NCBI GenBank assembly: GCA_032718475.1
Contig: JAUCBJ010006371.1
Span: 40,395-104,394, forward strand
DNA length: 64,000 bases
From: Nemertoderma westbladi
Taxonomy: Eukaryota; Animalia; Xenacoelomorpha
Reading direction: 5' to 3'
In this document: positions 12,172 through 56,800 of the stretch, in pieces
Layout of the letters: every line of letters starts with the position of its first letter
Numbering within the stretch: the first letter of the stretch is position 1
The notes under the pieces: model-generated
Seen by the model: only the letters and a program-made list of their open reading frames with translations
Database searches by the model: none
What the model was told of the DNA's origin: nothing
Translations under genes and position numbers: made by a program

Positions 12172-12430
12172 ATGAATGGGATAATCTTTTAGTCTCGTTA
12201 AGCCAAGGAATGCCTGTTCACCACCATGGGTGATCTTCCACAGTAAACCCTTCCACTCTGTTTCCCAGGTTGCCTTGGTTCCCATTTATCGACCACTGAA
12301 GGATGGAGGCCGGGGTTGGGCTAGGCTGCAGCATTTAAAGCACTGTGCCCAAACAGTGCTGCCCCATCTAGGGATCAAACCCGGGCTCCCTAATCGGAAG
12401 CACAGTAATGTCACCACTAGACCAAGCTGC
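12172..12430 (-). mobile_element. tRNA-derived SINE, copy 1
   Basis: The minus-strand head has an A-box TGGTCTAGTGG and a B-box-like GGTTTGATCCC. A second diverged copy lies at ~34993-35250. Confidence 0.75.
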
Positions 12431-12949
12431 TGCTTGGTCTATTATGCTAATGGAATATGGATATATATATATCAGAGAATAGTGCAATAATGTATAATAA
12501 TATAGGATTATTTATTTAATAAATTAAATTTATGGATTAAAATTGCAGGTTTCACTTTGTGGCGGCGGATGTTAAACTATTGAGTGACAGTTAAGAATCC
12601 TGTAAGCGGAACATAGGACGTCGCTGCCTAGCTACGACTGTAAGACAAGGCTACTGCCGCTATGGACGGAGTCTGAGTGGCGCCGGTAGTTAATGGTGCG
12701 GATAGATTTATGTACCGGTACTCCATCCATTTCCTATTCCACACCCCGCTCTAACAGTCAATCACTTCTCAAGAACCCACCCCGTCACACTTTTAAGTAA
12801 CCAAATCCATTAATAATTAGAAATAAACATCCCCCCCCCCATGGTTCCTCGATAATCCATCAATCCAATAATCCATAACCATACATAAATAACCCATACC
12901 TCCAACTATATACAAACCATAACCAACTGTATATAGTTGATCATGCACC

Positions 12950-15092: not shown

Positions 15093-18000
15093 CTATAACG
15101 CCGTTTCTTTTTTGTTATTAATAACAAAAGTGTAGTCAAGGGCTGACGTTGCTAGTGGAATTGAGGTCTTGATAGGAGCGGCGATGTCCCCATTGGTTGT
15201 CACCTTGGTAATCGCAATGTCGTCGCAAGCCTCGTAAAATTTTGAATTATCAAAGAAATTCGCCTGTGTGGAGGCGTTTGATTGGTAGGGGAGAGGGGAC
15301 CCTTCGCAGGACCAATCAGGGATCGAGGATTGTCCGGACCAGCGTCTATCCCGCAACCCTATAACCTCATTGGTCGATGAGTGTGACATAATCTCCAGTG
15401 ATTGGTCCTTAGGTTGTGGGTCTGGGGGCGCGAGTAGGGGGGAATCCGATAGCTTGCCGACTACTCCGTTACGCTTGGGTTTATTCAGCGAGCGGGATAC
15501 CAAACTCAACATCTGTTGTATCTGGCGTTCGTGCCGTGTGAGTCGCACGGACACCCCGCTGTCGCTGTCCACGCCCCCGAGATGGGGCGACTCGCGCGCC
15601 GGCGGCCGGATCTCCCGGAGTACCGCGGAGAGATTCGACGGAAGACTCTGTTTTATTCTCTCATCGTCGCTGAACGCGCCGCTGTACGCGGAACCCCGCT
15701 CCAACGACTCGGGAGTCACTTCGTATTTCATCGACTTTTTATCGGAAGCCGATTTGCTCTTAGTAATTGTATTACTATCTCCCGCTCTGGGTGATTTATT
15801 AGCGAGACAATGGGTGGAGGTGGATGTCAATTGCCTCGATGTCCCTCCCCTGTATTCCCCTATCAATAGGTCTAGCATGCGGCTCTGTGCCGACAGCGAG
15901 GCGCAGACACCAACCCCGGGGTTCCGAGACAACGATCTACTAGAGCAGCGGGGTTGCGCGACTACTGGCGGTTGAAGCGTCGCATCCGATATCTGTACCC
16001 ATAGATCGTCGGGAGTTTTTATTTCAGTTGTGGGATTTGTTTCGGGATTTTGGGTGTCTGGCAAGACGTTCAATATATCCTCAGTGCGTGGTGGCCCCCT
16101 TCCGTTGTGTAACTGAATCACTCTCGGGTTTGCACCGAAAGCCACTGCATTATTCTCTACAGGGGAAAATAAGAGTTTCTTTTTCATTTTTCGTGTTTTG
16201 TTGATAACATTGCTGCCGAGTTTACAGAGCTCCTGGCGCAAAGAGGAATGTATTTTACCACCACTAGAGGGTTGAATGTCCTGGTCTATGATGGATATGG
16301 GGGAGTCGCCTTTACTGGATATAGAAAGAGACCGGGGGATGCCGGTGATTGGTGGGGGGAGACCTCCGCAGCTGCTCCCTGAGGTTGAGCAACTGAGCAC
16401 GTGATTGGTCCGCGGTAGGTCGGGGCTACGGGAGGTAGACAAGGGGGGTCGGTCGTTAGGCAACGGGGGTTTACCGGAGGGACCCAACTTATTGCACACG
16501 ACGCCGTTAGGGGTCGTATCTTCGAGAGGTTTGGAATCCTTCGAGGCGACTTCGTTGTCGGAGACCCCGGAGGAAGTATCGTTGGCCCGAGTATCGGTTG
16601 CTAAGGAAACCGGTACGCCGTAAGTGGCCAGTAGACGGACTATATCAGTGTGGCAACCTTTGAGCGCGAGTTTAAGAGGAGTTCGGTTGTAGCGGTCGGC
16701 GTGGTACGGGTTGGCCCGGTAGGCCAGGAGGGTAGCGACAACGTCGCGATGGCCTTCCTGGGCCGCGATACACAAGGCCGTCGTATCCTGGTTGCAGCAG
16801 TGGTCTATACGGGCCCCCTGGTTGAGCAGACGACCCACTATGGCGGCGTGACCCTGCCACGCAGCCGCCTGCAACGGGCTGCGTCGTTCCTTGTCGCAAG
16901 TGTTGGGCCGCGCGTGGTATTCCAGTAAGAGATTCACCATGGCCGTGTTGCCCTGCCAACAAGCGACGTGGAGTGGAGTCCTTCCCTGGTTGTCCTGACA
17001 CTCTACGTAGGCGTCGTTATCCAATAGGAACCGGGTCATCTGTAGCCGATTCTCTAGGGCCGTCATGTAGACTACCGATCTACCGTCACTGTCCCGCTGG
17101 TTGATGTTGGATCCCTTCATTAGGAACAGGTTGACCAGCTGGAAGTGGCCCTCCAACGCGGCAACCCGTATCGGCGACTGTTCCCCCAGGTCCCGGTGGT
17201 CCATCTTCGCTCCTCGGTTAATCAGCATCTTGCACGTGTCGATGTGGCCCTCGGAAGCGGAGAATATCAGCGCGGTTCGACCTTCCATGTCCGTGTCATC
17301 CACATTGGCGCCAGCGTCAATGATCGTTTGACATACCTGAATAGATAAATAATAGCGAGGTGTTATTATTACGATGGCATTAACAATTACACGATTTGAT
17401 CAATGTCATAATGCAGTGTATAGTACAATGCATAACTAATATTCAAAAAATTTAACATTATTTGATCTAGTTAAGTGAATTATTGGGTTAGATAATACTA
17501 TTGAGGAGAAGAAAACAGAAGATGTACGATGTCTGTTTTGCGAGCAGCTAGACAGTGGTTCCTGTAACTAATGACTTGTTGTGCGAACATTGATGGTGAC
17601 AACGGTTATTCCCGGGGGATCCCAAACTGTTCCACCTCCTGCTGCCATACACCACGAATCCATCCTGCATTCCTGCATCTCAAGGATTATTCAGGTTTTC
17701 CTTCAGTTGTTGGTTACTGATGTGTGTATGTTGATATGGTGCCGATATGATGTGTGTATGTTGATATGGTGCCGATATGATGTGTGTATGTTGATATGGT
17801 GCCGATATGATGTGTGTATGTTGATATGGTGCCGATATGATGTGTGTATGTTGATATGGTGCCGATATGATGTGTGTATGTTGATATGGTGCTGATATGA
17901 TGTGTGTATGTTGATATGGTGCCGATATGATGTGTGTATGTTGATATGGTGCCGATATGATGTGTGTATGTTGATATGGTGCCGATATCTAACTGAGGGT

Positions 18001-24000: not shown

Positions 24001-27000
24001 ACTCAACCCACCTTTGTATGTTCCTCACGGTTGTCCCACTCAACCCACCTTTATATGTTACTCACGGTTGTCCCACTCAACCCACCTTTGTATGTCCCTC
24101 CCAGTTGTCCCACTCAACCCACCTTTGTATGTTCCTCACGGTTGTCCCACTCAACCCACCTTTGTATGTTCCTCACGGTTGTCCCACTCAACCCACCTTT
24201 GTATGTCCCTCCCAGTTGTCCCACTCAACCCACCTTTGTATGTTCCTCACGGTTGTCCCACTCAACCCACCTTTGTATGTTCCTCACGGTTGTCCCACTC
24301 AACCCACCTTTGTATGTCCCTCCCAGTTGTCCCACTCAACCCACCTTTGTATGTTCCTCACGGTTGTCCCACTCAACCCACCTTTATATGTTACTCACGG
24401 TTGTCCCACTCAACCCACCTTTGTATGTCCCGCCCAGTTGTCCCACTCAACCCACCTTTGTATGTCCCTCCCAGTTGCCCCACTCAACCCACCTTTGTAT
24501 GTTCCTCACGGTTGTCCCACTCAACTCACCTTTGTATGTCCTTCCCGGTTGTCCCACTCGCACTCAACCCACCTTTGTATGTCCCTCACCGTTGTCCCAC
24601 TCAACCCACCTTTGTGTGTCCCTCACCGTTGTCCCACTCAACCCACCTTTGTGTGTCCCTCACGGTTGTCCCACTCAACTCACCTTTGTATGTCCTTCCC
24701 GGTTGTCCCACTCGCACTCAACCCACCTTTGTATGTCCCTCACCGTTGTCCCACTCAACCCACCTTTGTGTGTCCCTTACCGTTGTCCCACTCAACCCAC
24801 CTTTGTATGTCCCTCCCGGGCTGCCAGGTGTAACCCCGTCATCCCGTTGTTATCCCGTTGCGATCCATTTATCCGCCGATCGAGCAGCGCGTTGACCACA
24901 TCCAGACTCCCCTGGATGGCCGCCACACCGAACACGAATCTCCCCTCGCCGTCCACCTTATCGTTGGCGGCACCGCGATCCAACAGGGTCGCCACCACGT
25001 CAGCGTGTCCCATCGACGCGGCGGCGAGTAACGAACTCCGTCCGTTGTTATCCGTTCGATTGATATCGGCTCCGCGGTTCAGTACCGACTCGACAACGGG
25101 GTTGAGTCCCTCGTAGGCGGCGAGTAGCAGCGGACTCATTCCGTCTGCGTCGACCTGATCGACAGCGGCGCCGCGGTCCAGGAGGGAGTCCACGATCCGG
25201 TGGTTCATAGCGTGGTGGCTGAGCGCCGCCACAGACAGGGCCGTGCGGCCGTCGGCGTCCGCGTGTCCCAGACGGGCGCCTGCATCCAGCAGCACCCCCA
25301 CCACCGCGGGACGGCCCATATAGGCTGCGGCTATGAGCGGGGTTCGACCCTCGGTGTCGCTGCTGTTAGCGTCCGCCCCCGCCGCTAGCAGCCGCTCAAC
25401 CGCGGTCACGTGACCCGCCCAGGCCGCCGCTCGCAACGCCGTACGTCCGTCGCGGTCCGCCGTATCTACCACAGCCCCGTTGCTCAGAAGCAACTCAATG
25501 ACGTCATCGTGACCCCCCCAGGCGGCGGCCCGTAACGCGGTCCACCCCTGATCGTCCTGTTTGTCCACGGCGATCCCGTTCGCGATGAGCAGCCCCGCGA
25601 TCTCGCCGTGCCCCCGATTGGCCGCCAGATGCAGCGGGTTGTCCCCGGCGGAGTCCGCCGTATCCACATTGGCTCCCCGCTGGAGGAGTAACTCAACGAC
25701 CTCCAGGTTACCCGCGAACGCCGCGTTGCACAGCAACGTGCGCCCGTTGTCGTCCATCTCGTTGACCATGGTGCCGCTGTCCAACCGCATCGCCATGGAG
25801 TTTATGGGATCCGGACACTCGGGTCCCGGGTTCGACCCCCCCTCAGCACCGGGGAGTTTCGCGCCGCACTGCAACAACATGCTGACAACCCTGTCGTCGT
25901 GGTAACGAGTTTGCAGACAGTCGGCGACAGGGCCGCCGGACCACAGCAACCACATGGGTATATGTAGGTCCCCGTCGAATGGGAAATCTATCTGTGATTC
26001 TAGCAAATCGTAACAGAGCGATTGGAGTTGTTTGTGTTCTAGAATGTCGATGCTAAGTGTGGCGTCGCCCCTCAGTGTGGCGTCCCCCCTCAGTGTGGCT
26101 GCCATCGCGAGCATGGCGTGGCCTTCCCGTTTGTGGCACAGATACTTGGGGGTGCAATGCTTCACGTCTAGCAGCCACTCCGCGAAACTATTGTGGAAGA
26201 TCTGTATGTTCCCATGGTGGGTTGTTTGTGTGACGAGTTTGAACACGGAGTCCATGAGTTTGTCGAAGTGTGGGCGGGTGAGTGAGGTGTTGCGAGACGA
26301 GACTGCTATGAACAGTAGGTCGGGGGAGACGGGAGACTGACAGGCGAGCAGCACGTTGAGTAAGGGCTGCACACGGGGAAAATGTTTCCTCGGGAAGATC
26401 CTGTTGCAGAGCCACAAGTAGAACCCGTTGAGAGTCCCGGGGATGTCCCTGATGTCTTGGAGACTAATAAACCGATCGCAGACCCCATCCAATACCTTCT
26501 CCAAGTAGAGAACACAGCCGTTACTCTTAATCAACAGTTGGTTTAACATTTCCGCGGTTTCTTTGCTCAACTGCCGTCTCAATGTCTCATCTTTATCCAA
26601 TCGCGTTAGAATGTATTGCTGAATGTCTTTGACAACGTTGGATTTACGCAGATCGTCGAGGGTGATTTTCCTGAAGCCGCTGAACAATCGGGAGATGTGT
26701 TTCGTGTGGCGTCGGGATGTGCACACTAGGAGTAGCCACGGTGGCAGTAGGTTGTAGTGGGTGGCTAAGAGTTCGGCGATGCTACGACTTTGATTGGTTT
26801 GTTGCACGGAACCAGATGAGTTGGATCCCAAGGGTTGGTTCCCCAGGGTACACTCATCAACCCCGTCTATAAGAAGGAAGCAGTTTCGCGTGGGCGGGTT
26901 TAGAGTGAGCAATGGAAGTAGGACGCCGGATCTAAAAGCCTCGTCCACGTTTTTAGCGCATTCGGTGGGTTCTAGAAGGGCTTTAATACTGGGTTCAGAT

Positions 27001-27329
27001 ATTTTACCTGAGTACCCGTGAATTATAGGGGATTTACACAGGGAAGCCACTAAATACTGTATGAAACCGACCACCGACAACGTTTCGCGCTCTTGGCTGT
27101 GGCAGAACCAAGCGGCCAATAGACGTCGACTCAGCGCCCTCTGGCGGCTGTAGTTGGAAGTAGGTGTCGCGATCTCGGAACACAGGGCGGTCTTCCCGCT
27201 TCCGGGGCCACCCATTATCACGGTGCCGCTACTGCGACAGGAAGGTCGGCTTTCTACGACGTGGAGGATTTTCTGGAACACCCATTCTCGGCAAAAAAAC
27301 CGTTTGCCTTGCAGAGAGCAGGAAGACAT
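15093..27329 (-). CDS. ANKRD50: Ankyrin repeat domain-containing protein 50 (P-loop/NACHT-like NTPase + ankyrin repeats + PDZ-binding tail)
   Basis: Exon 1 27329-24801 has LQGKRFFCREWVF, Walker A GGPGSGKT, Walker B LLIDGVDE and ankyrin repeats, ending AAREGHTK|gtgggt. Exon 2 17336-15093 starts cag|VCQTIIDAGANVDD, has more ankyrin repeats and ends KKETAL, like the vertebrate KKETPL. The phase-0 join completes an ankyrin repeat. Confidence 0.92.
17717..17988. repeat. 30-bp minisatellite (TGATGTGTGTATGTTGATATGGTGCCGATA), ~9 near-perfect copies, in the ANKRD50 intron
   Basis: Directly visible tandem unit. Confidence 0.95.
19870..24820 (-). repeat. ~5-kb 37-bp minisatellite whose unit spans the ANKRD50 exon 1 / intron donor junction
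   Basis: Sense unit CCGTGAGGAACATACAAAG|GTGGGTTGAGTGGGACAA. The first unit is the true exon end (REGHTK) plus donor at 24801/24800. Confidence 0.95.
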
Positions 27330-29916: not shown

Positions 29917-30187
29917 AACAAGCGCAAAATCGCCCAATGGTCCGCGTCTACTAACGCATTAACTGTCTCCTTGAATGGCTTACAGTACTACCAATCTTAC
30001 TAACAAAAAAATCACCGGAAATTGGGATTGAACTCGATACCTAGAGATTCCAAGTCCAACGCTCTACCAACTTCGCCACTGCGTCGTATGAAGCCTTATA
30101 AAAAACCTAACTGGAAAATTAACAACAACACCAACAACAACAACAACAACGTTGTGAATACTAGGACCTACACGGACGAAAAAAAAC
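29917..30187 (-). mobile_element. Helentron-associated (HINE/DINE-like) non-autonomous element with internal tRNA-like segment, copy 1
   Basis: Homologous to 32849-33108. Has an ACAAG end with hairpin, a GGTCCGCGT subterminal repeat and a (CAA)n microsatellite. Confidence 0.55.
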
Positions 30188-32848: not shown

Positions 32849-33108
32849 AACAAGCGCGAAATCGCGCCAAGGTCCGCGTCTACTAACGCATGAACTGTCT
32901 CCTTGAATGGCTTACTCCCAATCTTACAACAAAAAACTTTCATCGGAATGGGGGATTGAACTCGGTACCTAGAAATTCCAAGTCCCACGCTCTGCCAACT
33001 GAGCCACTGGGGCCGCATTCAATCCTTAATACCAAAACCTAACGAGAAATTAACAACAACAACAACAACGGAGTGAATACTAGAGGTATCGCTACGCGGA
33101 CCTAAAAA
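32849..33108 (-). mobile_element. Helentron-associated (HINE/DINE-like) non-autonomous element with internal tRNA-like segment, copy 2
   Basis: AACAAG end, hairpin GCGCGAAATCGCGC, subterminal inverted repeat GGTCCGCGT...ACGCGGACC and a (CAA)n tract. The minus strand has A-box TGGCTCAGTTGG and B-box GAGTTCAATCCC. Confidence 0.6.
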
Positions 33109-34295: not shown

Positions 34296-37200
34296 TTAAA
34301 CGCATTCGTAAAACTTGTTGAGCTGGTTGGCATCTTCAACTGTTGGTAAGTGATTCCATGGAATGTAGTCGCCGTCAATAGTTACCATGCTGTTACCATT
34401 GGTAGCGAAGGCCCCGCTGTAGTATTGCATAACGGATTTTGTTTCATATGGACTTCCCAAGGAATTTATTGACTGTTTTCGGAATGCAAACCTAGAATTA
34501 AATTAATCACAAATGGACATTGAATTGATAATTACTCCAATTGGTTTAGTTTAGACTAAACGTTATACTATTTTTTAATTATTTGTAAAGTCTTAAGTTT
34601 ACTATAGTTACTTAATTTATAGGTATTTTGTAATAAAAGTCATTAAAAAAAATTCGTCCAATGTAATTACATAATAAATAAGAATATATAAAGATTATTT
34701 ATTTATTATTTTATAGTTCCTACTTTAAATTTTCAGGAATATTCTCCCACAGAATTCTAACGTGGTTGTCTCGATCCGGACGGCTCTGTTCGTGGAAGAA
34801 GCCGGCGGCATGGAGGAACTCGTGGATCGCCGTTCCTTTGCTATGGCAACCGTATCCTAGCGACAAGTTTTGAGACCCGCCATTTCGTCCAACCTAAAGA
34901 CCGAGTTGGATATTAAGTCGATTACAGTAATTATTATTAATATTGTGATTAATACTGTGGGCATAACGCGAATTTAGTAGCAGTGTTTGCATATGAATGG
35001 GAGAATCTTTTAGGCTCGTTAAGCCAAGGAATCCCTGTTCACCACCATGGATGATCTTCCACGGTTAACCCTTCCACTCACTCTGTTCCAAGTTACCTTG
35101 GTTCCCATTTATTGACCAGTTAAGGATGAAATCCTGGGTTGGGCTATGCTGCAGAATTTAAAGTACTGTGTCCAAATCGTGCTGCCTCTATCTAGGGAGC
35201 GAACCAGGGCTTCTAATTGGAAGCCCAGGAATGTAACCACTAGACCAAGCGGGTGCTTGTATGTATTCTAAAGATAAAAAAGGTTGGTACTTACATAAGA
35301 AGTGCAGCCGCTGCCAAGAACAACGTTAACGTAGTCGGGTTCATTAGTTCTCGGCACCAGTCGTATACACGTGTACTGAGCGAACCAAGCCTTGGCCTGG
35401 TCGACCGCATTGCGAACATCTCCGTTAGAAGTTCCATAAGTGTATGGAATTGCGTAATACTATGGAACATACAACAAATTGCAATTAATAAAGGCACCCA
35501 TCAAATACTGTAATAATAATTGGTTGTACTCGTTGCAGACTAATTATACGGAAACAGTAGCACTGTACAGCAGCAGTAGGCCTAAGTGTACTGCCGGTAA
35601 ATGAATCTTCGCCTTTTCCCGGAAAAGATGCAAAAATATTTTGAGGTATTTTTTTTAAAGAAATATGTAGTTTGCCTTTGTTTCCCTCGGTGGGGAGCTA
35701 CTGTAGGTCTATTTGAAGGGGAAAAAGTGCAATCTTATTGGTGAAATGTTGCTTACAAATAGAGTAGGTAAAGAATTTTACAAATCTACCTGGGGGGGGG
35801 GGGGGGGGGGGGTCTTTACGTCTCAGGGCCACGCTTTTGAGCCTTGGATCTTTGTTTTGTAGACACCCTTACAACTACAGTAGTATCTAATGCAAGTAAA
35901 ATTGTAATTCTGGTTGCTTTGATCCGAAATCGGTATCTTATCTGATGTCTTACGTACCACTGGTATGCTATTGATGTACCACTGATGGTACTGATTATTG
36001 ATAGTAACAATGTGTTAGCAAGCTGTATTTTTCGAGGTGTTTGTTATTATACATTTATTATAGGAAGGGATCTAGGGGTCTTTTCAAAGAACCTGTGGCC
36101 TAGTAGTTGTAGTGTCGGCTTTCACCTCGAGGTCCCAGGTTCGAATCCGACACCACGCTGATGAGACCCAGTAAGGTCGAAACGCGTACGTGGTTTGGAG
36201 AGATATGAGATATTAATTTCAAGAAAAATTACGCGATTCCTAAATTTGTACACTACCCGGTTAAAAAGTACGCATGTGATGGGATTAGTCCTGCAATTGC
36301 GCCAATAAAAGATAAGTTATTTTCGGTAAAATAAACTTATCATTCGAGGTAAAGACCCCTAGATCCCTTCCTATAATAAACTGATGGTACTGGTACACTC
36401 ACCTTTGGATACAGATATTGCGTCCATCGAATACTTGGATATGCAGAACTTCCACGACCAAGAATAGCGTCTTCTATTATGGTTCTCGTTTTCTTTGCGA
36501 GAATAATATCTCCCTGTTGAAAGTTGGGACAAACATTACAATTTACATAATTTATGTAAACATTTTAATATATATTTATATCACTGAAGACGTGTGTTAA
36601 TACACGAAATGGCCATATGATAAAAGGAATTTGTTTTACCTAGAATCGTGCCTTAGACCCTTACAACACCAATATAACTCCTCGATTTTACTGTAACTCT
36701 GTCACATTTTAAATTAGTTTTTAATTTGAAAGCTTTGGCTATAAACACCATTACTGTTTAGTCGAATCTTAATGATCCCTGCTCTAAGATATTATATTTT
36801 TTCATTATCAACCTTTTATAAGCTATAAACCCATACTGTATTGGCATTGTGAATTATCCTGTCAGCATAGGCGCCTACGCTTAGCCTTTAGCTTGATAGT
36901 CTGCCACACGCGGTCCCGTTTAGTTTCCATTATTTGGAGTTATCTTACCTACTCGGCCTGTGTAATGTGATCGAAACGTGACAGCATAACCAACCAGTGG
37001 CCTTGGCCAATTACTACCCTGCTTTCACTACGGAATTACATACTTGAGTACGGATCCGGATTTTCATTTTTTAAGGTATAAAAGGCGATGATTTTGTATT
37101 TCCTTCACTTTTTGCGAAAATGCGACTGTGACTTCCTGTGACTGCGCCATTTACTGCGGTAAATGTTTTCTGAGCTTTTAGAGCATTTTGATTTAAATTT

Positions 37201-38738
37201 ATGAATTTATGATTTATGAATTCCACCAAATCTGATAATTGTTACTAATAATCGAGAACTCATATTATTCCAACTATTTCAACTACTTAGGCGACCAATA
37301 CGGAATCTCACTTTAAGGTCATTCCCCTAAAAGGGAAAGGCCAACCTTTATACAGATTTTCGTCCACCCTTCGAACCCTAACGGGATGTGTCCAATAACC
37401 CACTCCCATTCTCACCCTTCACCCGCCGCATCGCACCCCCAAATCACGCAGCTTCGTTCACAATATTTTAACACAATAATTACGCACTTGGAAAATCGCA
37501 TTCGGATTTGATGCTTCCTGAAATGCTATGTATGTCACGTATTGACAATGAGGGATACAGTAGTTGCTGCTGACATTCAATATTAGCCGATATTAAGTTG
37601 GCCTACAGTACTGTCTTCGGAAATCATACAACCTGATAAGGCAGTTCTTCTCCCTCAGTTACGCATTCACATATTGGGCAACCGTGTTCGTTGTTCTTCC
37701 ATCCAAACAAGCAATCCACTCCGCATTCATCAGCTACAAACGTCGAGTCTTTACAGTTATCAGCTACAGCAGGATCAAGTTGGTGTTGTAGTTGGTTTTC
37801 TACAGTGAAATAAATATTCAGCCAGGATTTTTAAGGGTGGTGGAGGAGGGGGGGGGGTGCGGTGATGGTAGTAATTAAATACAGAAATGTCGCATATAAT
37901 GCATAGTAGCGGGGGGCCTACCTACAGTATACTTGATTTACTTTTAATACTGAGCTAAAATTTTGGACAGTAAAAAATGAGAGACTCGTTTTATACCAGA
38001 CAGAAGTAATACATTCATTATTAAGTATTAATTTTATTTAAATTTTAAAAATTAACTTCAATTTGCTCTACCGATAAGACTATAATATGTATATAGGTAC
38101 AGTACAGTAGGCCTACTGTACCTCCACATTGTTCACAAATAGCGTTATGGTCGAAATTGCCTCCCTGTGAAATATCCCCCGTCATGATCGCCCAGCGCGT
38201 AGTGCCTCCCCGGGCAAAATTGCCTTGCAGAAGTGTCCCCTTCCGAGCCAAATGCACGTACCTCCATTGTAACTAGTAACTGAATAACTATTCTTGTCGT
38301 ATTCTTGTTTAAATCACCCATTGTATATGTTTTTTGTTAATATTCTATCAGTTTTTTTTAAGTTTTTTGCACCGTATAATTACATAGTTTTGGTACAACA
38401 GTACTTTAGCCTAACTTTTAATTGGCATAATAATAATAATAATAATAAATGTAACCTGTTCCTTTCCTTCAATATGTAACTAAATCGTTCATTTTTTGGT
38501 TAGAATAGCCTGCCAATTTTTATTGCATTGCATTTTAACAAGTTGTATCGTTATAGCGATCCTGATACAGTACGTACAGTATACTGTATTGCTTCAGAAT
38601 TAATTATCCAAACAAAGACATTTATCATTGAAAGGTTGTAATGTAATTGTAATTTTTTTAATGTAATTTTTTGGTATAATATAACTTACCGCTAGCTGAA
38701 GCAAGACAACAGAATGCAAGAATAACAAAAAGTTTCAT
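34296..38738 (-). CDS. Secreted astacin-family (M12A) zinc metalloprotease, 285 aa, with an antistasin-like Cys module in the prodomain
   Basis: Six GT-AG exons with consistent phases: 38738-38690 (signal peptide MKLFVILAFCCLASAS), 37799-37633, 36513-36403 (YQ|GDI aspartate-switch motif), 35459-35295 (TCIRLVPRTNEPDY...GSGCTSY), 34893-34724 (HEFLHAAGFFHEQSRPDRD) and 34491-34296 (Met-turn SVMQY...LNKFYECV*). Total 858 nt. Confidence 0.92.
34993..35250 (-). mobile_element. tRNA-derived SINE, copy 2 (in astacin intron 4)
   Basis: Colinear with 12172-12430. A-box TGGTCTAGTGG, B-box GGTTCGCTCCC. Confidence 0.75.
36092..36150 (+). promoter_or_regulatory. tRNA-derived (tRNA-Glu(TTC)-like) internal Pol III promoter
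   Basis: A-box-like TGGCCTAGTAG, anticodon-loop-like CTTTCAC and B-box GGTTCGAATCC. The acceptor stem is not intact, so this is not a functional tRNA. Confidence 0.65.
36147..36198 (+). ncRNA. Minimal type I hammerhead ribozyme
   Basis: Stem I ACCACG/CGTGGT, core CTGATGA (36158-36164), stem II GACC-cagtaa-GGTC, GAAA, short palindromic stem III (ACGCGT) and cleavage triplet GTA (36186-36188). Confidence 0.85.
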
Positions 38739-40489: not shown

Positions 40490-41737
40490 ATGAGAGAGAG
40501 AATGACAAGCACTGACACCCGAGAACTTAAACTGGATGGGCATGTCGGTTTCGACAGCTTACCGGATCAACTCGTCAACCGTTCTGTCGCCCAGGGGTTC
40601 TGCTTCAACATCCTCTGCATCGGCGAGACAGCGCTGGGCAAGTCAACCCTCGTAGACACCCTTTTCAACACCCACTTCGAGAGCGAACAATGCTCCCACA
40701 AACTCCCCAAAGTGGTTATTAGAGCGGCTTCGCACGACCTTATAGAGAGCAATGTCCAGCTGAAACTAACTGTGGTTGATACGCAAGGGTACGGCGACCA
40801 GATAAACAAAGAGAACAGTTACAAACCCATAGTTGATTACATCAACGAGCAATTTGAGAAATATCTTCAGGAGGAGTTGAAGATCCAACGCAATATGTTT
40901 AGTTTCCACGACACCCGTATTCACATGTGTCTCTACTTTGTGAGTCCCTCTGGCCACGGCCTAAAAGCCCTCGATTTAATTACTTTGAAGAAACTGGACA
41001 GCAAGGTGAACATCATCCCACTTATAGCGAAATCAGACACAGTTTCTAAGAACGAGTTGCACAAATTTAAGATAAAGATTATGAGTGAGTTGGTTTCTAA
41101 CGGAATCCAGATCTACCAGTTCCCAACCGACGACGACAACGTTGCCGAGCTCAACTCCCAGATGAACGGGCATCTCCCATTCGCCGTGGTCGGAAGTATC
41201 GACGAGATCAAGACGGGTACCAAGACCGTCCGCGCGCGTCAGTATCCCTGGGGCGTCGTTCAGGTCGACAACGAAGCCCATTGCGACTTCGTTAAACTCC
41301 GCGAGATGGTGTTGCGCACCAACCTCGAGGACCTGCGAGAGTCCACGCACACCCGGCATTACGAGTTGTATCGCCGCTGTCGACTGCAGGAGATGGGATT
41401 CGCCGACTCCACCGGTGATAAAAACTTCTCTTTGCAGGAAACTTTCGAAGCTAAAAGACAACAACATTTGAAGGAGTTGCAAAACAAAGAGGACGAAATG
41501 AGACAGAAGTTTATAGTTCGTGTTAAAGAAAAGGAATCCGTGTTGAAACAGAACGAGAAGGAATTACACGCGAGGTTCGACGCTATTAAAAAGGAACACG
41601 CGGAAGAGAGGCAACGATTGGAAGAGAAGAAACGCATTCTGGAAGAGGACATGGCGAGCTTCCAGAGACGCAAGGAGGCTGTGCGACAAGCGCAGGAAGC
41701 GGCTCATGCCGCCTCCTTAAAGGGGAAGAAGAAATAG
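40490..41737 (+). CDS. Septin, SEPT6/8/10/11 group (single coding exon)
   Basis: [14 protein letters not shown]1 GETALGKS, G3 DTQG, G4 AKSD, septin unique element ARQYPWG...[10 protein letters not shown], and a C-terminal coiled coil. Confidence 0.95.
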
Positions 41738-42706: not shown

Positions 42707-43712
42707 GGGTCGTTTGCACAATAAGTGGCCAAATTGCGTCCCATGTAATTTCGCCATTTTATAAGCCATAACTCAGGTGAAAATAACCAAAACCATATAG
42801 TCATATACACCTTTATATATTTCTATAGAGCGAATTTTTGCCCATTTTTTGGCATTGGTTTTAAGCATGAAAATAAATTTTATGCGATGTCCCATTCTAT
42901 GTTTTTGAGATACAAACAATCATAACCAAATGTTAGTAGTAACTACAGTATATATCGGCCAAAAGCTTATTTCGAGATCTACAATCTAGTACTAGTCGTT
43001 ATGCGGGTACTTCTTTAAAATTTGTTTTTGAAGCAATAAAAAATGCTATAAATTCGTTTTTAGAAATTTTTTCATGTGTTGTAACGCTCGTTTTTTAAAG
43101 ATAACTTTTTAGTGTGAAATGTGTATGTGTCAAAGTAAGTATTTTCCGAAAGATAATTTTATTGGCTATCCGTATATATACGATTGAATGCGAAACGATT
43201 AGTCTAACAGAATTTATGCCCAAAAGTTAACCCAGCAGTTTTTTTACGTTATTGGAAATGTCCCTCTTGTAACGCCCTTATTTTCGCCTTTTGTATTTTT
43301 GGACCGTTTCTGAAGGCGCTATCTAATGACATACAAGGTCAAGCCTAGAGATTGCTAAGCATGTCCCCAATTGTCCTGCATGTAACGGTATGCAACGCAT
43401 TGTAACGGTGTCTCACTTGTAAAGCATGCACAGAAAAATGTAACGCAAAGAAACTGTCGTTACACTTTCATTACAGATGAGACATGTCCAAAACGTAACG
43501 CATGTTTAAACAAGGAAATTGATATAAGACAAAGCGTTACCGACGAGTCATACGTTTTTCGTCCATAACTTTTTTACTATTGGTAGAAAAAATGAACCAC
43601 TATGAAATTTGAAATCAGCACGCTAAGGGCTTCCGAAAGTATGATTTGATAGGGTTGGTGGCGAAATTTTTTTTTTAACATTGAATTTGGCCACTTATTG
43701 TGCAAACGACCC
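42707..43712. mobile_element. ~1-kb non-autonomous TIR element, PIF/Harbinger-like
   Basis: Perfect 29-bp TIR GGGTCGTTTGCACAATAAGTGGCCAAATT at both ends, flanked by AAA on each side (possible 3-bp TSD). No ORF. Confidence 0.75.
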
Positions 43713-44347: not shown

Positions 44348-44675
44348 ACAATATTGCAATGTTCTAAAGTTAATATACGGAAATAATAACCTGAAGCGAA
44401 TAAAACTGAATAATCACTGATGCCGTTCCAGAAGCAAATTAACCTGTATAATTACCGAGGCCGCAGGCCGAGGTTATTATATTAGGTTAATTAGCTGAAG
44501 GAATAATACCTTCAGCCTTATCCTTCAGCAAATTAACCTAATATAATAACCTCGGCCTGCGGCCTCGGTAATTATACAGGTTAATTTGCTTCTGGAACGG
44601 CATCAGTGATTATTCAGTTTTATGCGCTTCAGGTTATTATTTCCGTATATTAACTCTAGAACATTGCAATATTGT
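44348..44675. repeat. ~330-bp near-perfect palindrome (fold-back)
   Basis: Arms of ~155 bp are reverse complements with few mismatches around a short spacer. Each arm contains CCGAGGCCGCAGGCCGAGG. A related motif lies at ~43748-43795. Confidence 0.88.
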
Positions 44676-47821: not shown

Positions 47822-50800
47822 TCAATTGAATTCATCGTCACTGTGATCAAAAACCTCCCCGGTTCTGGAGAGCATATAATTATCCATGTCGATACTCTTA
47901 CAGTTGTTAATAGCGTAGCGCAGTCGGTTGGCCAGCATCCCCTGACTCGAGTAGGACGGCAACCTGAGTTGGAAGAAACAAGTCTGCGCCGTAGGCAGCG
48001 AGTCCAGTTCCCGATCCACTCGGATTATCTGAAACCGCTGACTGATATCCGCGATGTTGACGGGAAGACGCGATCTCCCGGAAACGAATCGCATAAATAA
48101 AACCCGTTCGTCGTTGTTAAACTCCGTCAGCGTCTGCCAAAACCACAGGATCAAGTGATGACCTTCTGAGAGCTCGCGGTAACGGACAACAGATTTCAAC
48201 ATGTCCAACGAGATATCGGGGACGCCGCAGACCAAACGTTCAATGTACGCGGAAGTGACCAACGAGAAGAGAGGAACCGGCACTATCCAACTCATCCCGA
48301 GACGCACCGCGGCTACCTGTCGATCCATCTCGTGCAGGCGATAGTGCAGCACCCTCTCGACGTACTCCTTGCGGTTGTGGTAGGTGAGCGGGATGCTGTG
48401 GCCCCCCGGGACCACGGGCACAAACTCTCCGGTCGCGCTCTGCCCCTCGAAGGAGTCCAACGGAATCACCTCGGAGAAGGAACTCGCGGTGACTCCGCTC
48501 CGATCGATGCCGGAGACGCTCCGCAAACTGCGGATGTACATCGGGTCAACTTCCTCCAAGTCCTCAACGGAAACGTTCATACCCGCCAACTGCTTCCAAG
48601 TCAGTTTGGCTAAATGTAGATCGATGGGTTTCTTGGTTCGTATGGCGACGCCCAATAAAATTCCGAGGAATTTAAACATCTGTAGATCTTCCTCGGTGGA
48701 TAACGCCGGATTCAATAAATACTTGTCGCGGAAGTTACCGGGGTCGGCCAGCGAGTTAGGAGTTGGGATTAGTATGTTGAGGTCACCGCGATGCAGTTCC
48801 GAACACATCTCTGTCATGGTATCATCGAACACCCCCCCAGCGTCGTCAGCACCTTCTCCTTGCAGTTTCACCTTCCATGCGCGGGACGGCAGTCGTAAAT
48901 CATCAGCTTTCAACGACAGTATCTGCCGGGCCAGTTGTACGAAAATCGGCTTGGCCTTCCGACCTCGGGGCACCAGCCGCCTCACAGTGACCTGCGGCCC
49001 GTAACTCCTTCCCTGCACCATGGTGCGCCCGATTGCGCGCACTGAAGGTAGTTGGTAGACCCGGGGCGCCAACAGTGGGCGCACTGTGCCACCGATCAGA
49101 CCCCCGACGGTGTAGGCCCGCTCTAAAGACGGATCCAAATCTGACTGCAGACACATGAAACGCCAACTCGCCGAGACTAGATCAGAGAAATGTAACAGCG
49201 TTCGCAGTCTAGAACGGATAGACTCGATGGGAATGTCTAATAGGCATGTGTACTGCTGGGGAATGGATTTGGGCAAACCGAGGAGGATTGGCGTGGCATA
49301 GCCCCGCCGTATCGGGCTGGGCGGTGGAGAAGTCCAGGCCGCACTGTGGGTTCGGCCAGCGGCTATCTGACGGATACCTTTCCCACTGAGCGGCGCGATA
49401 AGCACCGGTTCACGTTGGAATGCCACGTGGCCCAATCCCAACTGGCCGTCCGAGTTGTTTCCCCACGCCCAAATGTTCCCGTTGGAGCACAATACTAGCG
49501 TGTGATCGGCGCCCACAGCGATATCCTCCACGAAGGAGTTGAACAAGGCAGGAATTTGTTGAGGTTTATTTTGAGTTCGACTTCGACCTTCAGTAACCCC
49601 GGTGAATCTCTCCTGTCCGAAGGAGAAAACCCTCCCGTCTTTAGTGAGAGCGACGGTAAACTGAGTTCCACAAGCCAGCTTCTTGATTCCTTGATTCTGG
49701 AGAGTTTCTATTCGATGAGGAGTCGATTTCGCTATAGAGTTACCCAATCCCAGCTTGCCATAGTCCCCGTCACCGCAGGCCCACACGGTCAATCCATCTT
49801 GGCTGCAACACACCGTATGGTTGAGACCACAGACAACCTGGCCAACTTGTTGACTGACTAAGGCTTCAATACGTTCGGGAGTTTTCTTATTGGCCGTTCC
49901 GCCATGTCCTAATCTTCCATAGTCACCGTTACCAAACGTGAATACACTACCGCTAGATGTGGTGACAGCGCTATGTTTAAACCCACAAGCCAAATCAACA
50001 ATATCTTCCCCTCGGAGCGCTTCAATCTGCCGAGGTCTCCTCTGCCTATCACTATTACCGTGGCCCAACTTCCCGTAATCACCGTCACCCCAGCTGAAGA
50101 CCTCGCCACTGTCGGTCAACGCTAACGAGTGACCGTCAGAACCACAAGAAGTGGCCAGTTTCACAACCACAAATCCCTGAAGAGAGGATACTGCAGTCAG
50201 TGTGTAAAGGTCATCAGAATTACCTTGTCCGAGTCGACCATAGGACCCCTCACCACATGCAGAAACTGTGCCGTTTGACTGTATTGTAAAGGTACAATTT
50301 TGACCGCATATTAATTGTTGGGCATTAGAAAACAAAGCACGCTGAGTGGGTAGTGTCATAGGACCCATTGATGTGGATTCTGCGAGCTGCCCGTGCCGAT
50401 TATCCCCCCAAAGATAAACATCTGACTTACCACCAATCATCCATTCCTCCGGGTGCTTACTGGACCATTGCATTATTTGTTCATCCATCTGCAGTGTCCA
50501 TATGCTGTTGTCCAATGGACTCTTGCCTCCTTCTGAGATGCGCTCAAGGAAAGGCACATGAAATGTTGATGGAAATGGTTTTCTATGAGTTAGAGAATCG
50601 CACGCGGAAATACAAGTAGCCAGTTGGAACAGCCACGCGAAATCCTTATGATCATCAACTGCGTCATGGGCTAATTGGTGGGGTGGCTTTCTTGGTTTCC
50701 CTATAATTTGATCGAGGCGTAAACTCACAGCGATAGTGCACAGCGATTTAAAATAATCGGTGTGAGTGAGTTGGTCCCCTGATGTAATTAAGTTTTTCTC

Positions 50801-53800
50801 ATAGTTGTATTGGCTTTGAAGCATCAACGGCAACAATGACAGAAGCTTTGTCAGCCAAGGAACATCCTTGAGTCCAAATACATTTAAGTTGGCCAATTCA
50901 TGGCGACACTTATAGAGGATTTGATTAGCCTCAAGAATGGCATCATCTACATTTACTAACAATAAATCACTGGAGCTCGACAACCCAACAGCTAATTGTG
51001 ACTCTTGACACCACGCAGATACAGCATTCGATTCGCCCTGAAGAGTTTGCACTAGGCAACCATCATACATTGTCCATATATTGCACAATCCCTGGTCGCA
51101 ACATGTGACCAGTAGAAGAGAGTCACTGCTAAATTCAACAGATCTAATAGGTTTTGAATGGCCTTTAAGAGACATCAGATGCGATACACAGACACAACTT
51201 GGAGTCGACTTGGAAATGGATTCCGAAGAACCTGGAGAAACATCATTGGATACAGTTTCTGCACTTAGCACATCTTTTGGCAACTTTGGTGCAACATTCC
51301 ACAACTCAACACCACCACTCTGCAATGCAACAGCTAAAAGAAAATTAGCACAGATGTGGTGTCCTTTTGAAATAACTGGGGACCACCGAAATGCCATAAT
51401 CGGAGTTAACAATTCGATGTGAGAAGCTAAGATCCACATATCAATTCTTTGATGCCAAATCCTCAGCACAGGATCACCATCAGCTATACTGGCAAGGTAT
51501 ACACCACTAGGGTCCCACTCCAAACCAATAATTCTTGTTTTGTGACCTTGAACAAAAAATGGTCCTGAATTTTGTACACAAAAATATTTGGAACAAAACA
51601 TTATACCACCATCATCATAACCAACAGCAAACCATTTATCTTCATCATACCAAGCCAATTTGCTAACTGCAATACCAGCCCTAGTACAAGAGTCCATCTC
51701 AACAGTATGATATGTTGATGCATCAAATATTTGAATAGATACCACTGTACCATCATCCCGACCTACAAGCAACTGATCTTTGCACGAAAGCGAGCTTTCC
51801 GAGAACAGTCTGTGTTGAGGCCAAGCAACATCATTAACTTTGCATGGCTGAGTCTCACTGTGACTACAACCGCCTGTTAAAGACCAGATGTATATGTCGT
51901 GGCCAGCTAAACCAGCCAGAAGTTTGCCATTGGAATTCCAGTAAAGCTTTTGAATTTCATGACTTAATTCATCCCCCATTTGCCAGCACTGGAACAATGT
52001 TGGTTTTTTTGCACCAACCCAGACAAAAACATTACCGGTTGAATCAACAGAAGCAAGCCGATTGCATGATGGATCAAACTGACAATCATAAATATTTCCC
52101 TGGTGACCTTCGAGTTTTAATGTTTGAAATTGAGGTAGATCTTGCCTACAGTCATCAACAGAATGTCCACCAGAATCATTGGCAAATAAAACAGTAAGGA
52201 ATTGAATTAAATGCCCTACAGCCCACTCCCTGTAGCCGACAGCCAGTTCACTCAAGCAACATGCGGATAAACAATTGCATATTAACAAAAGAGAAGACTG
52301 TTGACTCCAGACCTGAGTCACAAATGCTTGGCTTTTTTGGCATGACCCACACATTGCTTTGTCCATTTGTTTCTGGGCGAATTTACCAAGTAAAGCTATT
52401 AGAATTTTAACAACAACAAACCCAACATTTGATTCCTCGGATTGACCTGCAGGGCCACATGATGCTGTTAGCATAAGCTCCTTAGTACAAAGTTGCAGCA
52501 ACAGGTGATGGGCCACATCATCGGTCGAGGCCAGAGAAATGATGGTCATGCCAAGGTTATCCATCAGTTGTGGGGTCCGCAAACTCTCCACAAGAGATAC
52601 CAGTTTTACCAAAATATTAACATCAGCTAAACCAATGCTTTCTACACTGGTTGCTAAACAACAAGGAGGCTGGCCAATTGAAACTACGGATAAAACCTGG
52701 AGAATTGTACTCCGTGCTATTTGAATTTGAAAAGTTGATCCGATGTTATGCAACGCAGATAGTCGATCGTTAATGATATATTGTGTGATTGCCTGATCGC
52801 CCAATGTCAGTTTTTGCCCAGAAAAATTATGTGGTATGGTAGATGGTGTGATTGGATCTCGTGTATTGACAGCTTGTTGACCTAAAGGATCCACATCGAC
52901 ATTAAACATGACTGGAGCGGGTAGACGTGTTGAATCACTTGGATGAGACATGGAATTCATTAAACCCAAAAGTGCCTCTGAATCTCCATCCTTGTGCAAT
53001 TGATTTAATTGGTCCGGGGAGAGATCTGATGTGTGACCCTCTTCACCCAATTCTGCAGTCTCTTCACCAACTATGGAATTCTGACCGAAATAATTTGTCC
53101 TACATAAGGGGCACAACAAATAATAAGGTGTACCAGTGCCACAAGTTCCACCGAACCATCCATCAACATAAGTGCCAGTGCTGCGATAGCCATGACGGCA
53201 CGAAGGATTTCCACACCCTGGATGGGAATTTCGCATATGAGCATTAAACTCTTCAACAGAGATGTTACACAGTTCACACATGACGGCAACATCACCAACA
53301 ATTGGATCTGATATTCTGTCATCGTTCCAAAGGTCTCCATTATCTTCCACATTGTCAGATGAAGATACTCGATGAGGAGGTGAATCCGGTGACAAAATAA
53401 TAGCGGCTCGACGAAGATTTCTTTGGGCAAATTGGTGTGGATTACGGGGTTCTCGGCATGGTAGTGGTGGTGGAGTCATCCGACTAGTCCATACCCTCCT
53501 GGCAGGAGGTCGTCGCATCATTGTCAAGCAAACTCTTGCTTGAGGCAACACTTCGCGACAACGTTCTTCCAATGAATTTGGAACGGAATCATCACCAGGG
53601 CAAAATAAGGCTTCATCCCTATGATCTACAGTTGAATCAACTACAGGATGCTCCAGTAAATATGTAGCAACCATGTTAGCGCGGTGAGCTGCACTGCTGT
53701 TATCAGCACCCGTTGCGACAATCGCTTGTTGGATATGTTGAACAGAGAACCCCATTTCTAATAGTGGAACCGCAAAATCAGGCAATAACAAGGACTGTGA

Positions 53801-56800
53801 TGTTGATGACATTGGCATTAACGGTTCATAAGGGATGCTGCATGCCTCCGGTGCATCTTGAAAACGAGTACTATAGATTGTAGCATTAGTATCCATACCA
53901 GTGTCTCGTGATTGAGCTGGCGCACCAGTATCACAGCCAGCATTATGGCGTCTTCGTTGTGGATGTGCTACACTGAAATGCTGTTGTGGAAGTCTTTGCC
54001 TGGGTGGTAATAAAATAGTCTTATGCTCTTTAAGATCAGGGGGTGGCTGGGCTTTTCCAATTAAGCAGTGCAATATGTTCAAAGAACTTTCAAGCTCATG
54101 TACAGGAACTTCACGCTTTATAGTAGTGGATTCAATAGCTTTGTTAACCAACACTCTCATTGATGTTTTTAAAGCGCTCTGCATTTCAACCACACTTTCT
54201 TCTTGGCTATCTCGTAAGATAACTTCTGAGAAATGGCTACTTGTTAATAACCCTGTTAAAAACTTCAATATTCCTACTTCAAGGTACATTAACATGAATT
54301 CTTTAATTTCATCCAGAGTGTCAGCTGTTGCTATAAACTTTGTTGAAAAGGGAAATTGCTTAGGCCTCACATCTGAACCATCGTTTTCTTGACTATCTGA
54401 TAGTTTTGACAAATTCTGAGAAATATCTGTAAGAGAAGCATTCATCACTGTCTGTTTAGTTTTGGAACTAAATAATGTAACAAGCATATTTATCATAGGT
54501 GGTGTCATACCTTGGAGATGACTGAAGTCAAATGCAGGGTGTTTTATGATTTCTAGAGATTGCAAAGGTTCATCCACAAACATGCGATTTGAAGAACTAA
54601 CTGATCGGTCATCCCATTGAACTTTTCCGGTAGAAGAACCATGCTTGATAACACCCAACAAAACACCCTCTCTACCAGTATCCCTCTGCATACACCGACA
54701 TCCCGCCTTTAGACCTCTGTCAAGTCCGCCACATAGGGCCAAAACAGGAAAAAGCATCTTCATAAAATTGTCCGTAACATCTGTGGACACTGCCTTTGTT
54801 CCGCGGTCAGTTTCGAAAGTGTCTATGTAAGATACACAGTTGGCCAAACGTTGGATTAATTTATTACAAATAAGGGATGACCATGATTCACTGTGGTTGA
54901 TTAAATCTCGCATAACAGCTATGTAGTGATCAGCAAGTGCAAACATTTTAGGTGAACAATGCGGTTCTCCAGAAATATAATCACTGGGAGATTCTGAGGC
55001 TTCAAAATCGCTAATTTCCACTTTCTCACCAGGAGAGTTGCTGTAAAACATAACACACGGGTACAGAATATCATTGGCCTCTAGATTATCAAAGGCGACT
55101 CTTAAATCTTGATTATTTTTTGCAAAGCTTAAGGTTCTTGCGTTTGTGTCTACCTCAACATGTATGCAATCTCCTTGCGTATAACATGGAAACTGTACAG
55201 GTACACTGATTTCCCCACCATGATACAAATTGCCACTGTAGGCACGATATAACCACATATCATACGTAGACCGGTGACTGTAATCTTGGACAGGGAATCG
55301 GGATACACCAATACAAGTACCTTCATTGCCTGGATTTTCTTTGAGAATGTTAAAGCACCACCGTGACTTACCTGATGGCAGGGGTGTTGCAGTCATACCA
55401 TAGGCCTTGCCAATGGTCGAATGCATAATACAATTACTTGGTTGAATAAGACAATTAACTGACTTATTAGAATCAAAATATGTATGCTGTAACAGATAAT
55501 TTAAACCGTACTCGGAACCGAAGCTATCTATATTAGGGGTCCAGATAGCATGATAGATGCTATCTAAAAGTATGTCCACGAAGTTAGATAATAGAGAATC
55601 ACCACTAGATGAATACATTACTAATTCACCAACTTTCTCAAAGAATAATTGACGCAGCAGATGGGTAGCTAAGAGTTTGGTTCTCAAGAGTTTTACACCA
55701 TTATATGAAGTTTGTCCAATTTTCATGAATAAGTTGATCCACTTACTAGAAGAAAGGCGAGTTTTAAAAACGTTAAACAAATTTGACAATCCAGTTAAAA
55801 ATACTATAAAATTGCCCACAGATTCATCCGAATTCAACACAGTTGTAGCAGTTAAAGTGTGTCGACTCGATTTTGAAGTATTCGTCGGTGGCGTCTTGAT
55901 ATAAGTAATCAAACTTTCCACATGCGTCATCAATAATGTTTCAATAAAATCGATCTGAGCTACATTGTTTGAAGTCTCGTCCAGTAGACCAGAAGTGAAT
56001 ACAACGAGATGGAGGAGAACCTTGGCAACGGCGAGGAGACATGGCAAAGGTTCCAAGGAGGCAGCCATAAAGGGGCTAAGAACCTGCTTATTCATTTCCA
56101 GAGGCAGCCGACAAGATAACAAAACAAGTGGCTTCAATAAACCTACTGAAAACGCTAACTTCACATCTTGGCATTGGTACTTGTATGTAAGTGCGCAAAT
56201 GCAGGCCATTAACATCGGGGTTGAATGCAAAGATGGGTGGTCCTCAAGCTCATTGTCAATAATGTTTGTAATATGTGAAAATATTTTATTAATCGTTGAC
56301 TCTATCAAAAACAAGAACTCTCTTGGGGCGCATTGAATACCAGCCAGGTAATGGCTGTACACAGTCACACCATCTTCTGAGTGCAGTCCGACACTGCTCA
56401 AACCAAAACAGCCATACATGAATTGAAGTTGAGCAGAATCCACCAAGTCATGCAATGAGAGTGTATCATCGTCATCATTTTTAGTCAATTCCCCTTTACT
56501 CAAAATCTTTTCAATTTCTTTAAGTGCATCAAGACGAATTTCCGCTTTGGTACATTGTTCATCAATGGCACTAGCAACTAGCATTACATTAGGTGGGGTA
56601 CCGGCTTCATATTGGCTAGGTTTCTCGAAATAATCTAAATGTGCTAAAGCGAATGTAACAATATTGTTACATATAGCACGGAATATATCGGCTAATGAAT
56701 ACTCAACATTGTTGTCGAAAGAAGTTGTGGATGCGGCATCGCAAATACTGGAGTTGGAAAATTCTTGTGTCAGTAGCTGGTCGGTGGGCAAAATGTGTGG

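Follow-up and report, generated by a model that had tools for sequence, protein, structure and literature searches.

In an astacin gene of the window (the whole stretch of 64,000 nucleotides analysed here), Pol III-type promoter boxes, a hammerhead ribozyme motif and a perfect inverted repeat lie side by side within one intron. This raises the question of what kind of element brings the three together, and whether the inverted repeat marks its ends. A first reading, made from the sequence alone, had drawn a cassette at 36054..36380 between the arms of the repeat and had suggested a non-autonomous family that combines SINE, ribozyme and inverted-terminus features.

Extent of the element and its inverted joints

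The limits of the element were read from Logan contigs of five public runs of organism A (X1 to X5, from three studies), aligned to the locus. Contig depth is 21.9 in X1 and 14.6 in X2 through 35993, rises to several hundred thousand at 35994, and drops at 36380, where the right-hand 13-mer begins. Since the repeat depth rises and falls exactly at the two 13-bp direct repeats (35981-35993 and 36380-36392), the element is 35994-36379, and the direct repeats, which had been offered as a possible target duplication, are one. The 30-bp inverted repeat (36054-36083 and 36351-36380) is confirmed as perfect. The cassette drawn at its arms misses 60 bp on the left; the left arm is no terminus, as it sits 60 bp inside the element end and extends into the body in other copies. 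The left junction is present in contigs from two studies (X1 record 1, X2 record 9) and is thus no assembly artefact. Among the X1 to X3 contigs listed, none runs across the whole insertion or the right flank and none represents an empty allele; the right flank at 36394-36528 has no contig cover in these three runs, for which a filter is possibly responsible.

The repeated unit consists of 36087-36380 plus a 60-bp tail, 354 bp in total, and is non-coding. Its extent is set by contigs that run beyond the arms, into the body at 36082 and into the tail at 36376-36380. At the 5' limit (36086-36087), 9 nt upstream of the A box, eight X1 contigs depart at 36087, and the long contigs X1 records 1 and 2 and X2 record 10 start at 36086-36087. 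At the other end, contigs of X1, X2, X3 and X4 past 36376-36380 read the reverse complement of 36053-35994, and X5 record 22, a contig of 253 nt, leads from 36141 across the arm into the tail, with no difference in either aligned part. Contigs show the family to have two 3' ends, one with the tail and one without it. The tail itself has an A+C fraction of 0.63 and is almost without structure; at 35994, 21-25 contigs per run exit to unrelated T-rich flanks (agreement 0.41-0.49). The order at the locus is duplication, inverted piece (tail plus 30 bp), forward tail-less copy, duplication (Table 1), and the bases at the head-to-head junction differ in other copies, whose contigs have other fillers. 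A second copy of the element was not found within the 64-kb window. A 14-bp match of 35809 to the arm was dismissed as chance, next to a poly-G run.

Table 1. Features of the insertion and of the neighbouring host exon, in window coordinates
Feature	Position	Strand	Remark
Left target-site duplication	35981..35993	+	13 bp; 12 bp should A36380 be part of the element
Optional 60-bp 3' tail of the inverted copy	35994..36053	-	None on the forward copy
Second copy of the unit's 3' core, inverted and 5'-truncated	36054..36083	-	Left arm
Junction bases separating the head-to-head copies	36084..36086	no strand	Few bases
Forward copy, from the unit's 5' limit to the tail-less 3' end	36087..36379	+	Non-coding
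tRNA-derived head, refolded as a 5' hairpin	36089..36142	+	
Pol III A box TGGCCTAGTAG	36096..36106	+	A score 8.5 bits
Pol III B box GGTTCGAATCC	36138..36148	+	Perfect consensus
Type I hammerhead motif	36152..36194	+	Predicted cut 36188/36189
TTTT, possible Pol III terminator	36320..36323	+	Sole run of at least 4 T in the unit
3' core end of the forward copy	36351..36380	+	Right arm
Right target-site duplication	36380..36392	+	Direct repeat; repeat depth stops
Host astacin exon	36403..36516	-	X4 record 32 connects to both neighbouring exons

What the inverted repeat represents can be read from the other copies. Past 36082, 24 X1 and 17 X2 contigs continue as the reverse complement of the unit body, and in other copies the left arm extends as the reverse complement of 36339-36350. 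The contigs hold at least 16 distinct inverted-to-forward joints, mostly at single-locus depth; those listed come as 7 among 15 in the first contig set (the best 15 of 82) and 11 among 15 in the second, with 2 in common. At the joints listed, agreement of the inverted pieces with the window sequence ends 23-85 bp from the tail end; the forward starts span 36108 to 36352 (the second set could show forward starts only up to 36215). The inverted repeat arises afresh with every insertion, as reported for Penelope-like elements (PLEs). Inverted termini are therefore not the family trait they had been taken for, the arms varying in length among the copies in X1 and X2, and the earlier expectation that other copies would share the repeats does not hold in that form because the arms have no fixed common length.

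These variable joints rule out fixed TIR/MITE or DIRS termini, unless a subfamily with exactly such ends exists. Capture of a tRNA-hammerhead cassette by a MITE- or DIRS-like element whose 30-bp inverted termini are fixed would suit the perfection of the 30-bp repeat, but the repeat runs 60 bp past the left arm, arm lengths vary among copies, no duplication adjoins the arms, and DIRS elements are described as lacking target-site duplications, or TSDs (PMC8969392); we give this account almost no chance. An ordinary LINE-dependent SINE with a 5' inversion through twin priming would account for the tRNA head, the 12-13 bp TSD and the 5' truncation. In twin priming the inverted segment is an upstream part of the RNA that is not duplicated, whereas the inverted piece of this insertion is a second copy of the 3' end and reaches 60 bp beyond. 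The unit is also without a poly(A) or microsatellite end, and a hammerhead of this type is a PLE mark (PMC4209133), which leaves such a SINE very improbable.

The unit is young, homogeneous and probably present in thousands of copies. Depth at the first repeat base is roughly 2,800-8,800 times that of the flank in both samples (X1, X2), a ratio taken only as 'thousands' because summed depth is not a copy number. In X1, 2,742 of the 3,366 aligned contigs are at least 95% alike. Between 35950 and 36215 only three sites vary at a 1% share, none of them in the boxes or the ribozyme, and the window copy deviates from the majority at three sites (36122, 36293 and 36351). Depth over the head is far under that over the body (71k against 750k in X1, 17k against 410k in X2), so that only a minority of copies retain an intact promoter; the same would be expected of truncated end repeats. 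Relative depth over the head is about three times as high in X1 as in X2. At 36087, eight X1 contigs have a common inverted junction (36200-36220 reversed) before the head, with an agreement of 0.64, and X1 possibly contains an amplified head-to-head subfamily with this shared junction.

The host gene lies on the minus strand, with Pfam Astacin in two exons. The insertion is in its intron 36402-35460, whose donor GT is at 36402/36401; the insert is antisense to the gene and begins 23 nt inside that intron, close to the distance of about 20 nt first estimated. Cleavage of the astacin pre-mRNA in cis, which had already been argued against, is rejected: the hammerhead is antisense to the gene and the descriptor has no hit on the minus strand. 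As separate observations, the inverted piece sets an AATAAA (36054-36059, minus strand) in the sense of the astacin intron, the 30-bp arms are able to pair in the astacin pre-mRNA near the donor site, and the host astacin has an antistasin-like domain at its N-terminus (37627-37830, minus strand).

The tRNA-derived head and the hammerhead motif

Like a SINE, the unit carries tRNA-derived A and B boxes near its 5' limit. A profile of 71 tRNAs scores the head at 16.3 bits (E 5e-4) and one limited to the 27 tRNAs without the search motif scores it at 16.0 bits, against best values of 10.3 and 11.5 bits for the two profiles in 40 shuffled 64-kb windows. The combined A+B matrix score of 33.9 bits is the top of the window (best among 100 shuffles, 27.9) and is inflated because the training tRNAs were partly chosen by the B-box motif, for which the smaller profile controls. 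The A-box score is attained at 4.4e-4 of window positions. A functional tRNA is ruled out, as there is no cloverleaf fold, ARAGORN with default settings reports no tRNA on the head and the Rfam tRNA model has no match there at E<=10. Judged by its sequence, the head is a decayed tRNA-like promoter and not a tRNA.

The head also folds back on itself: 36089-36103 is identical to the reverse complement of 36128-36142 at 12 of 15 positions, where 55 real tRNAs reach at most 9 of 15. Since the A box overlaps this fold-back with the B-box region, the hairpin may supply part of the A-box score. The boxes had been described as tRNA-Glu-like. The boxes and the tRNA origin stand, the profile score exceeding all shuffles, while the assignment to Glu falls: position 36122 is C in more than 99% of the depth in both X1 and X2, so that most copies have the anticodon TCC and the TTC ('Glu') is private to the window copy.

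Pol III transcription of the unit from this internal promoter is likely, given the A and B boxes and a 5' limit where Pol III would start. The T4 run at 36320 precedes both 3' ends and could halt Pol III before either. X4 contigs, which come without strand, start or level, contain spliced astacin and unit fragments.

The hammerhead is the sole motif of its kind in the window, and the same descriptor finds none in 200 shuffled 64-kb sequences. It has a full core; stem I is 6 bp and stem II 4 bp long, the palindrome ACGCGT takes the place of stem III, and stem I is extendable by 5 bp (36146-36150 with 36195-36199). In the earlier description as a complete minimal type I hammerhead following the B box, type I and the full core are correct and 'minimal' fits less well; helices of 6 and 4 bp are nearer the 'canonical' size class of PMC4209133 than its 'minimal' one. 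The proposed check against Rfam gives a match to Hammerhead_HH9 (26.6 bits, E 2e-4) that stays under the gathering score of 52, and no family in the Rfam scan lies above gathering. For two molecules, the active dimer is the predicted MFE structure (-42.7 against 2 x -17.2 kcal/mol), and the monomer is predicted to favour an inactive fold, with its active form 5.6 kcal/mol above the monomer MFE. In the predicted fold, the T-arm that is freed by the fold-back of the head lengthens stem I. A non-autonomous-looking family with a tRNA-type promoter and a dimer-type hammerhead, as originally proposed, is supported.

Cleavage does not define the copies. Nine of the 16 forward starts listed lie upstream of the cut site, from which we infer that uncut RNA was copied, and one lies within 2 nt of it. 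This bears on a satellite origin, in which the unit would be one monomer of a tandem retrozyme or of a repeat like Sm-alpha, cut by its hammerhead to unit-length, possibly circular RNA and then re-inserted. Non-LTR retrozymes are 150-450 bp long and, like the unit, have long TSDs and a type I hammerhead whose palindromic helix III is weak (PMC7229834), in Sm-alpha a hammerhead accompanies a Pol III promoter (PMC6765202), and tail-to-head joints do occur (36001 joined to 36106 in X1 and X3, and 36305 joined to 36142 via the tail end). However, the starts of copies are scattered or coincide with the tRNA head, the tandem joints observed have single-locus depth and truncated heads, and the tail end leads mostly to unrelated flanks. 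The astacin-intron locus is a single unit and no array, and the tail-to-head joints listed elsewhere are few and of low depth. We regard a satellite monomer as improbable.

A candidate Pol III-driven passenger of Penelope enzymes

The insertion is very probably of PLE type. A variable inverted 5'-truncated copy, a tail confined to one end and a TSD that encloses the entire unit make up the Penelope layout, and the type I hammerhead of a PLE end repeat is found as a motif and in the predicted fold. Published EN+ PLEs have a 5' inverted truncated copy, an optional tail and a surrounding duplication (PMC8557442, PMC3846280, PMC8969392), with TSDs of 8-10 bp and tails of 30-40 bp (PMC8557442, PMC3846280), against 60 bp for the tail of the unit. 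The likeness to EN+ PLEs such as Pen2a and Poseidon_Ac takes in the head-to-head inverted truncated copy, the one-end tail, the TSD and the 5' fold-back, as well as the type I hammerhead with a tiny palindromic helix III; hammerheads in PLE end repeats have already been published (PMC4209133). The link to PLEs and to Sm-alpha drawn in the sequence-only reading is supported.

Among explanations of the unit itself we lean, with modest confidence, towards a Pol III-driven, stand-alone, non-autonomous family that derives from a PLE and is copied by the enzyme of an autonomous PLE. No ATG-led frame leaves the 3' end of the unit, no poly(A) or simple-repeat end is found there, its ends being PLE-like. 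Against such a family counts that no autonomous partner turned up in the window, where the 115 longer frames outside the tandem arrays have no RT or GIY-YIG match.

In the mechanism proposed, Pol III would start near 36087, just 5' of the A box, and read past the T4 at 36320 beyond the tail. A dimeric PLE RT/GIY-YIG protein would bind the 3' region and nick both target strands 12-13 bp apart, and cDNA would be primed from each nick at two internal sites around the tail, namely 36379 and the tail end. The two cDNAs would end at random points and join head to head, giving the inverted repeat and the duplication; at this locus, nick one would have been primed at 36379 and run to the RNA 5' end, and nick two at the tail end, for 90 nt. 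The hammerhead would be handed down from a PLE end repeat and would cleave only once dimerised or assisted by protein, which would leave uncut, promoter-bearing RNA as the usual template. Purified Poseidon_Ac protein is reported to cut and extend both target strands in vitro, with reverse transcription beginning at two internal tail-flanking sites on uncut RNA, and the Poseidon_Ac hammerhead to cleave with protein only (PMC11167929).

Alternatively, the unit may belong to an autonomous PLE with its own coding sequence and form its end repeat (pLTR), in which case the copies would mostly be 5'-truncated stubs and the head that element's promoter or a passenger. Strong 5' truncation of PLE insertions is usual and pLTRs often stand alone or inverted (PMC8557442, PMC3846280), 5' palindromes are known from pLTRs of about 200 bp and the present head has a 5' fold-back, and depth declines toward the 5' end, with heads under-represented. 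Against this, independent contigs end at 36086-36087 without common foreign upstream sequence, the eight loose ends at 36087 read the unit's own inverted body, and the loose ends at the unit limits have no common continuation into a coding body (agreement 0.41-0.64), although they give 30-letter consensuses only, in which a minority of copies continuing into an ORF would stay hidden. There is no ORF start within the unit or its tail, unlike the end repeats described for Adineta Pen2a (PMC3846280) and Poseidon_Ac, which contain one. The 5' limit 9 nt ahead of the A box is SINE-like, with tRNA-derived A and B boxes in place of the Pol II promoter described for EN+ PLEs. On balance we consider the end-repeat account unlikely, if deserving of serious weight.

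A passenger family of this kind would have partial counterparts. Schistosome Sm-alpha has a Pol III promoter and a hammerhead (review PMC6765202), and both Sm-alpha and Sj-alpha of Schistosoma place the hammerhead right after a Pol III-type promoter, as here; they are described as tandem units cut to promoter-less monomers, whereas the present copies are dispersed, keep the head and bear the inverted end and tail that mark PLE insertions. Non-LTR retrozymes of metazoans, likely PLE dependants (PMC7229834; bioRxiv 10.64898/2026.07.22.740005), are also short and non-coding, with a type I hammerhead, and are proposed to be non-autonomous PLE derivatives. They are tandem by definition, the accessible portions of these sources describe no tRNA-derived promoter for them, and copies of the unit do not start at the cut. 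Short non-autonomous Penelope elements are reported from butterflies (PMC6685494). TRIMs with a Pol III promoter have been published (PMC10886601); like tRNA-derived SINEs, the TRIMp3 elements Helenus, Ajax and Cassandra described there are short and non-autonomous and have a small-RNA-derived Pol III promoter, as does the unit. SINEs and TRIMp3 rely on LINEs or LTR retrotransposons, and the unit would be the PLE counterpart.

More tentatively, PLE-dependent tRNA-headed elements may form a third class of Pol III parasites, with repeated origins in unrelated animals; in the present one, the refolded hairpin would extend stem I and a dimer switch would remove the promoter. SINEs are by definition parasites of LINEs; such a third class would stand beside SINEs (LINE-dependent) and TRIMp3 (LTR-dependent), and in the present element the promoter would be removed by dimer cleavage only when the RNAs are crowded or bound by PLE protein. 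A tRNA-headed dispersed element with a PLE inverted end and tail was not found in the literature searched, which took in few subscription papers; such a family may be catalogued in Repbase or Dfam. The case for retrozymes using Penelope enzymes has so far been built mostly on ribozymes in common, co-occurrence and similar pLTRs. With the full Penelope insertion signature on a young, uniform and abundant unit of 354 bp, the in vitro PLE system would gain a minimal substrate of natural origin. Experiments could then ask what a PLE protein requires of an RNA supplied in trans, by which route tails and inverted ends arise, and what keeps a seemingly dispensable ribozyme in PLEs. Such copies are liable to mis-annotation as MITEs, SINEs or tRNA pseudogenes.

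Pattern scans and other features of the window

A pattern scan for a B box plus hammerhead gave no loci in viral contigs and at least 80 in metagenome contigs. Among the metagenome loci listed, none is similar to the element, the best blastn match being 24 nt. Eight of them (L004, L007, L017, L039, L042, L046, L055 and L070) have an intact tRNA and, a few bases on, a full type I hammerhead with a stem I of 5-6 bp and a stem II of 4-5 bp. From their sequences these loci look like hammerhead counterparts of tRNA-trailer theta ribozymes; the literature found on the latter makes no mention of 'hammerhead' in its accessible portions. Core motifs, perhaps of other topologies, are present at L015, L016, L018, L021, L023, L025, L047 and L058.

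Elsewhere in the window, a second perfect inverted repeat of 29 bp (42707-42735 and 43684-43712, about 1 kb apart) probably belongs to a true TIR element, and a long imperfect fold-back was seen by eye at about 44400-44660. An ordinary tRNA-headed SINE-like family is present on the minus strand at 12172-12436 and 34993-35259, and another such family, also on the minus strand, at 29917-30138 and 32849-33069, where it adjoins (AAC)n. The septin of the window (415 aa) has no exact match in the protein collection searched, and its named full-length homologues reach at most 72% identity, the best being from a hemichordate; the host is accordingly an animal distant from the named proteomes. Very long uninterrupted frames at 47822-58939, 40490-41737, 24792-27329 and 15093-17399, whose products are a HERC1-like protein (3705 aa), this septin, and NACHT-ankyrin and ankyrin proteins, point to an intron-poor animal genome.
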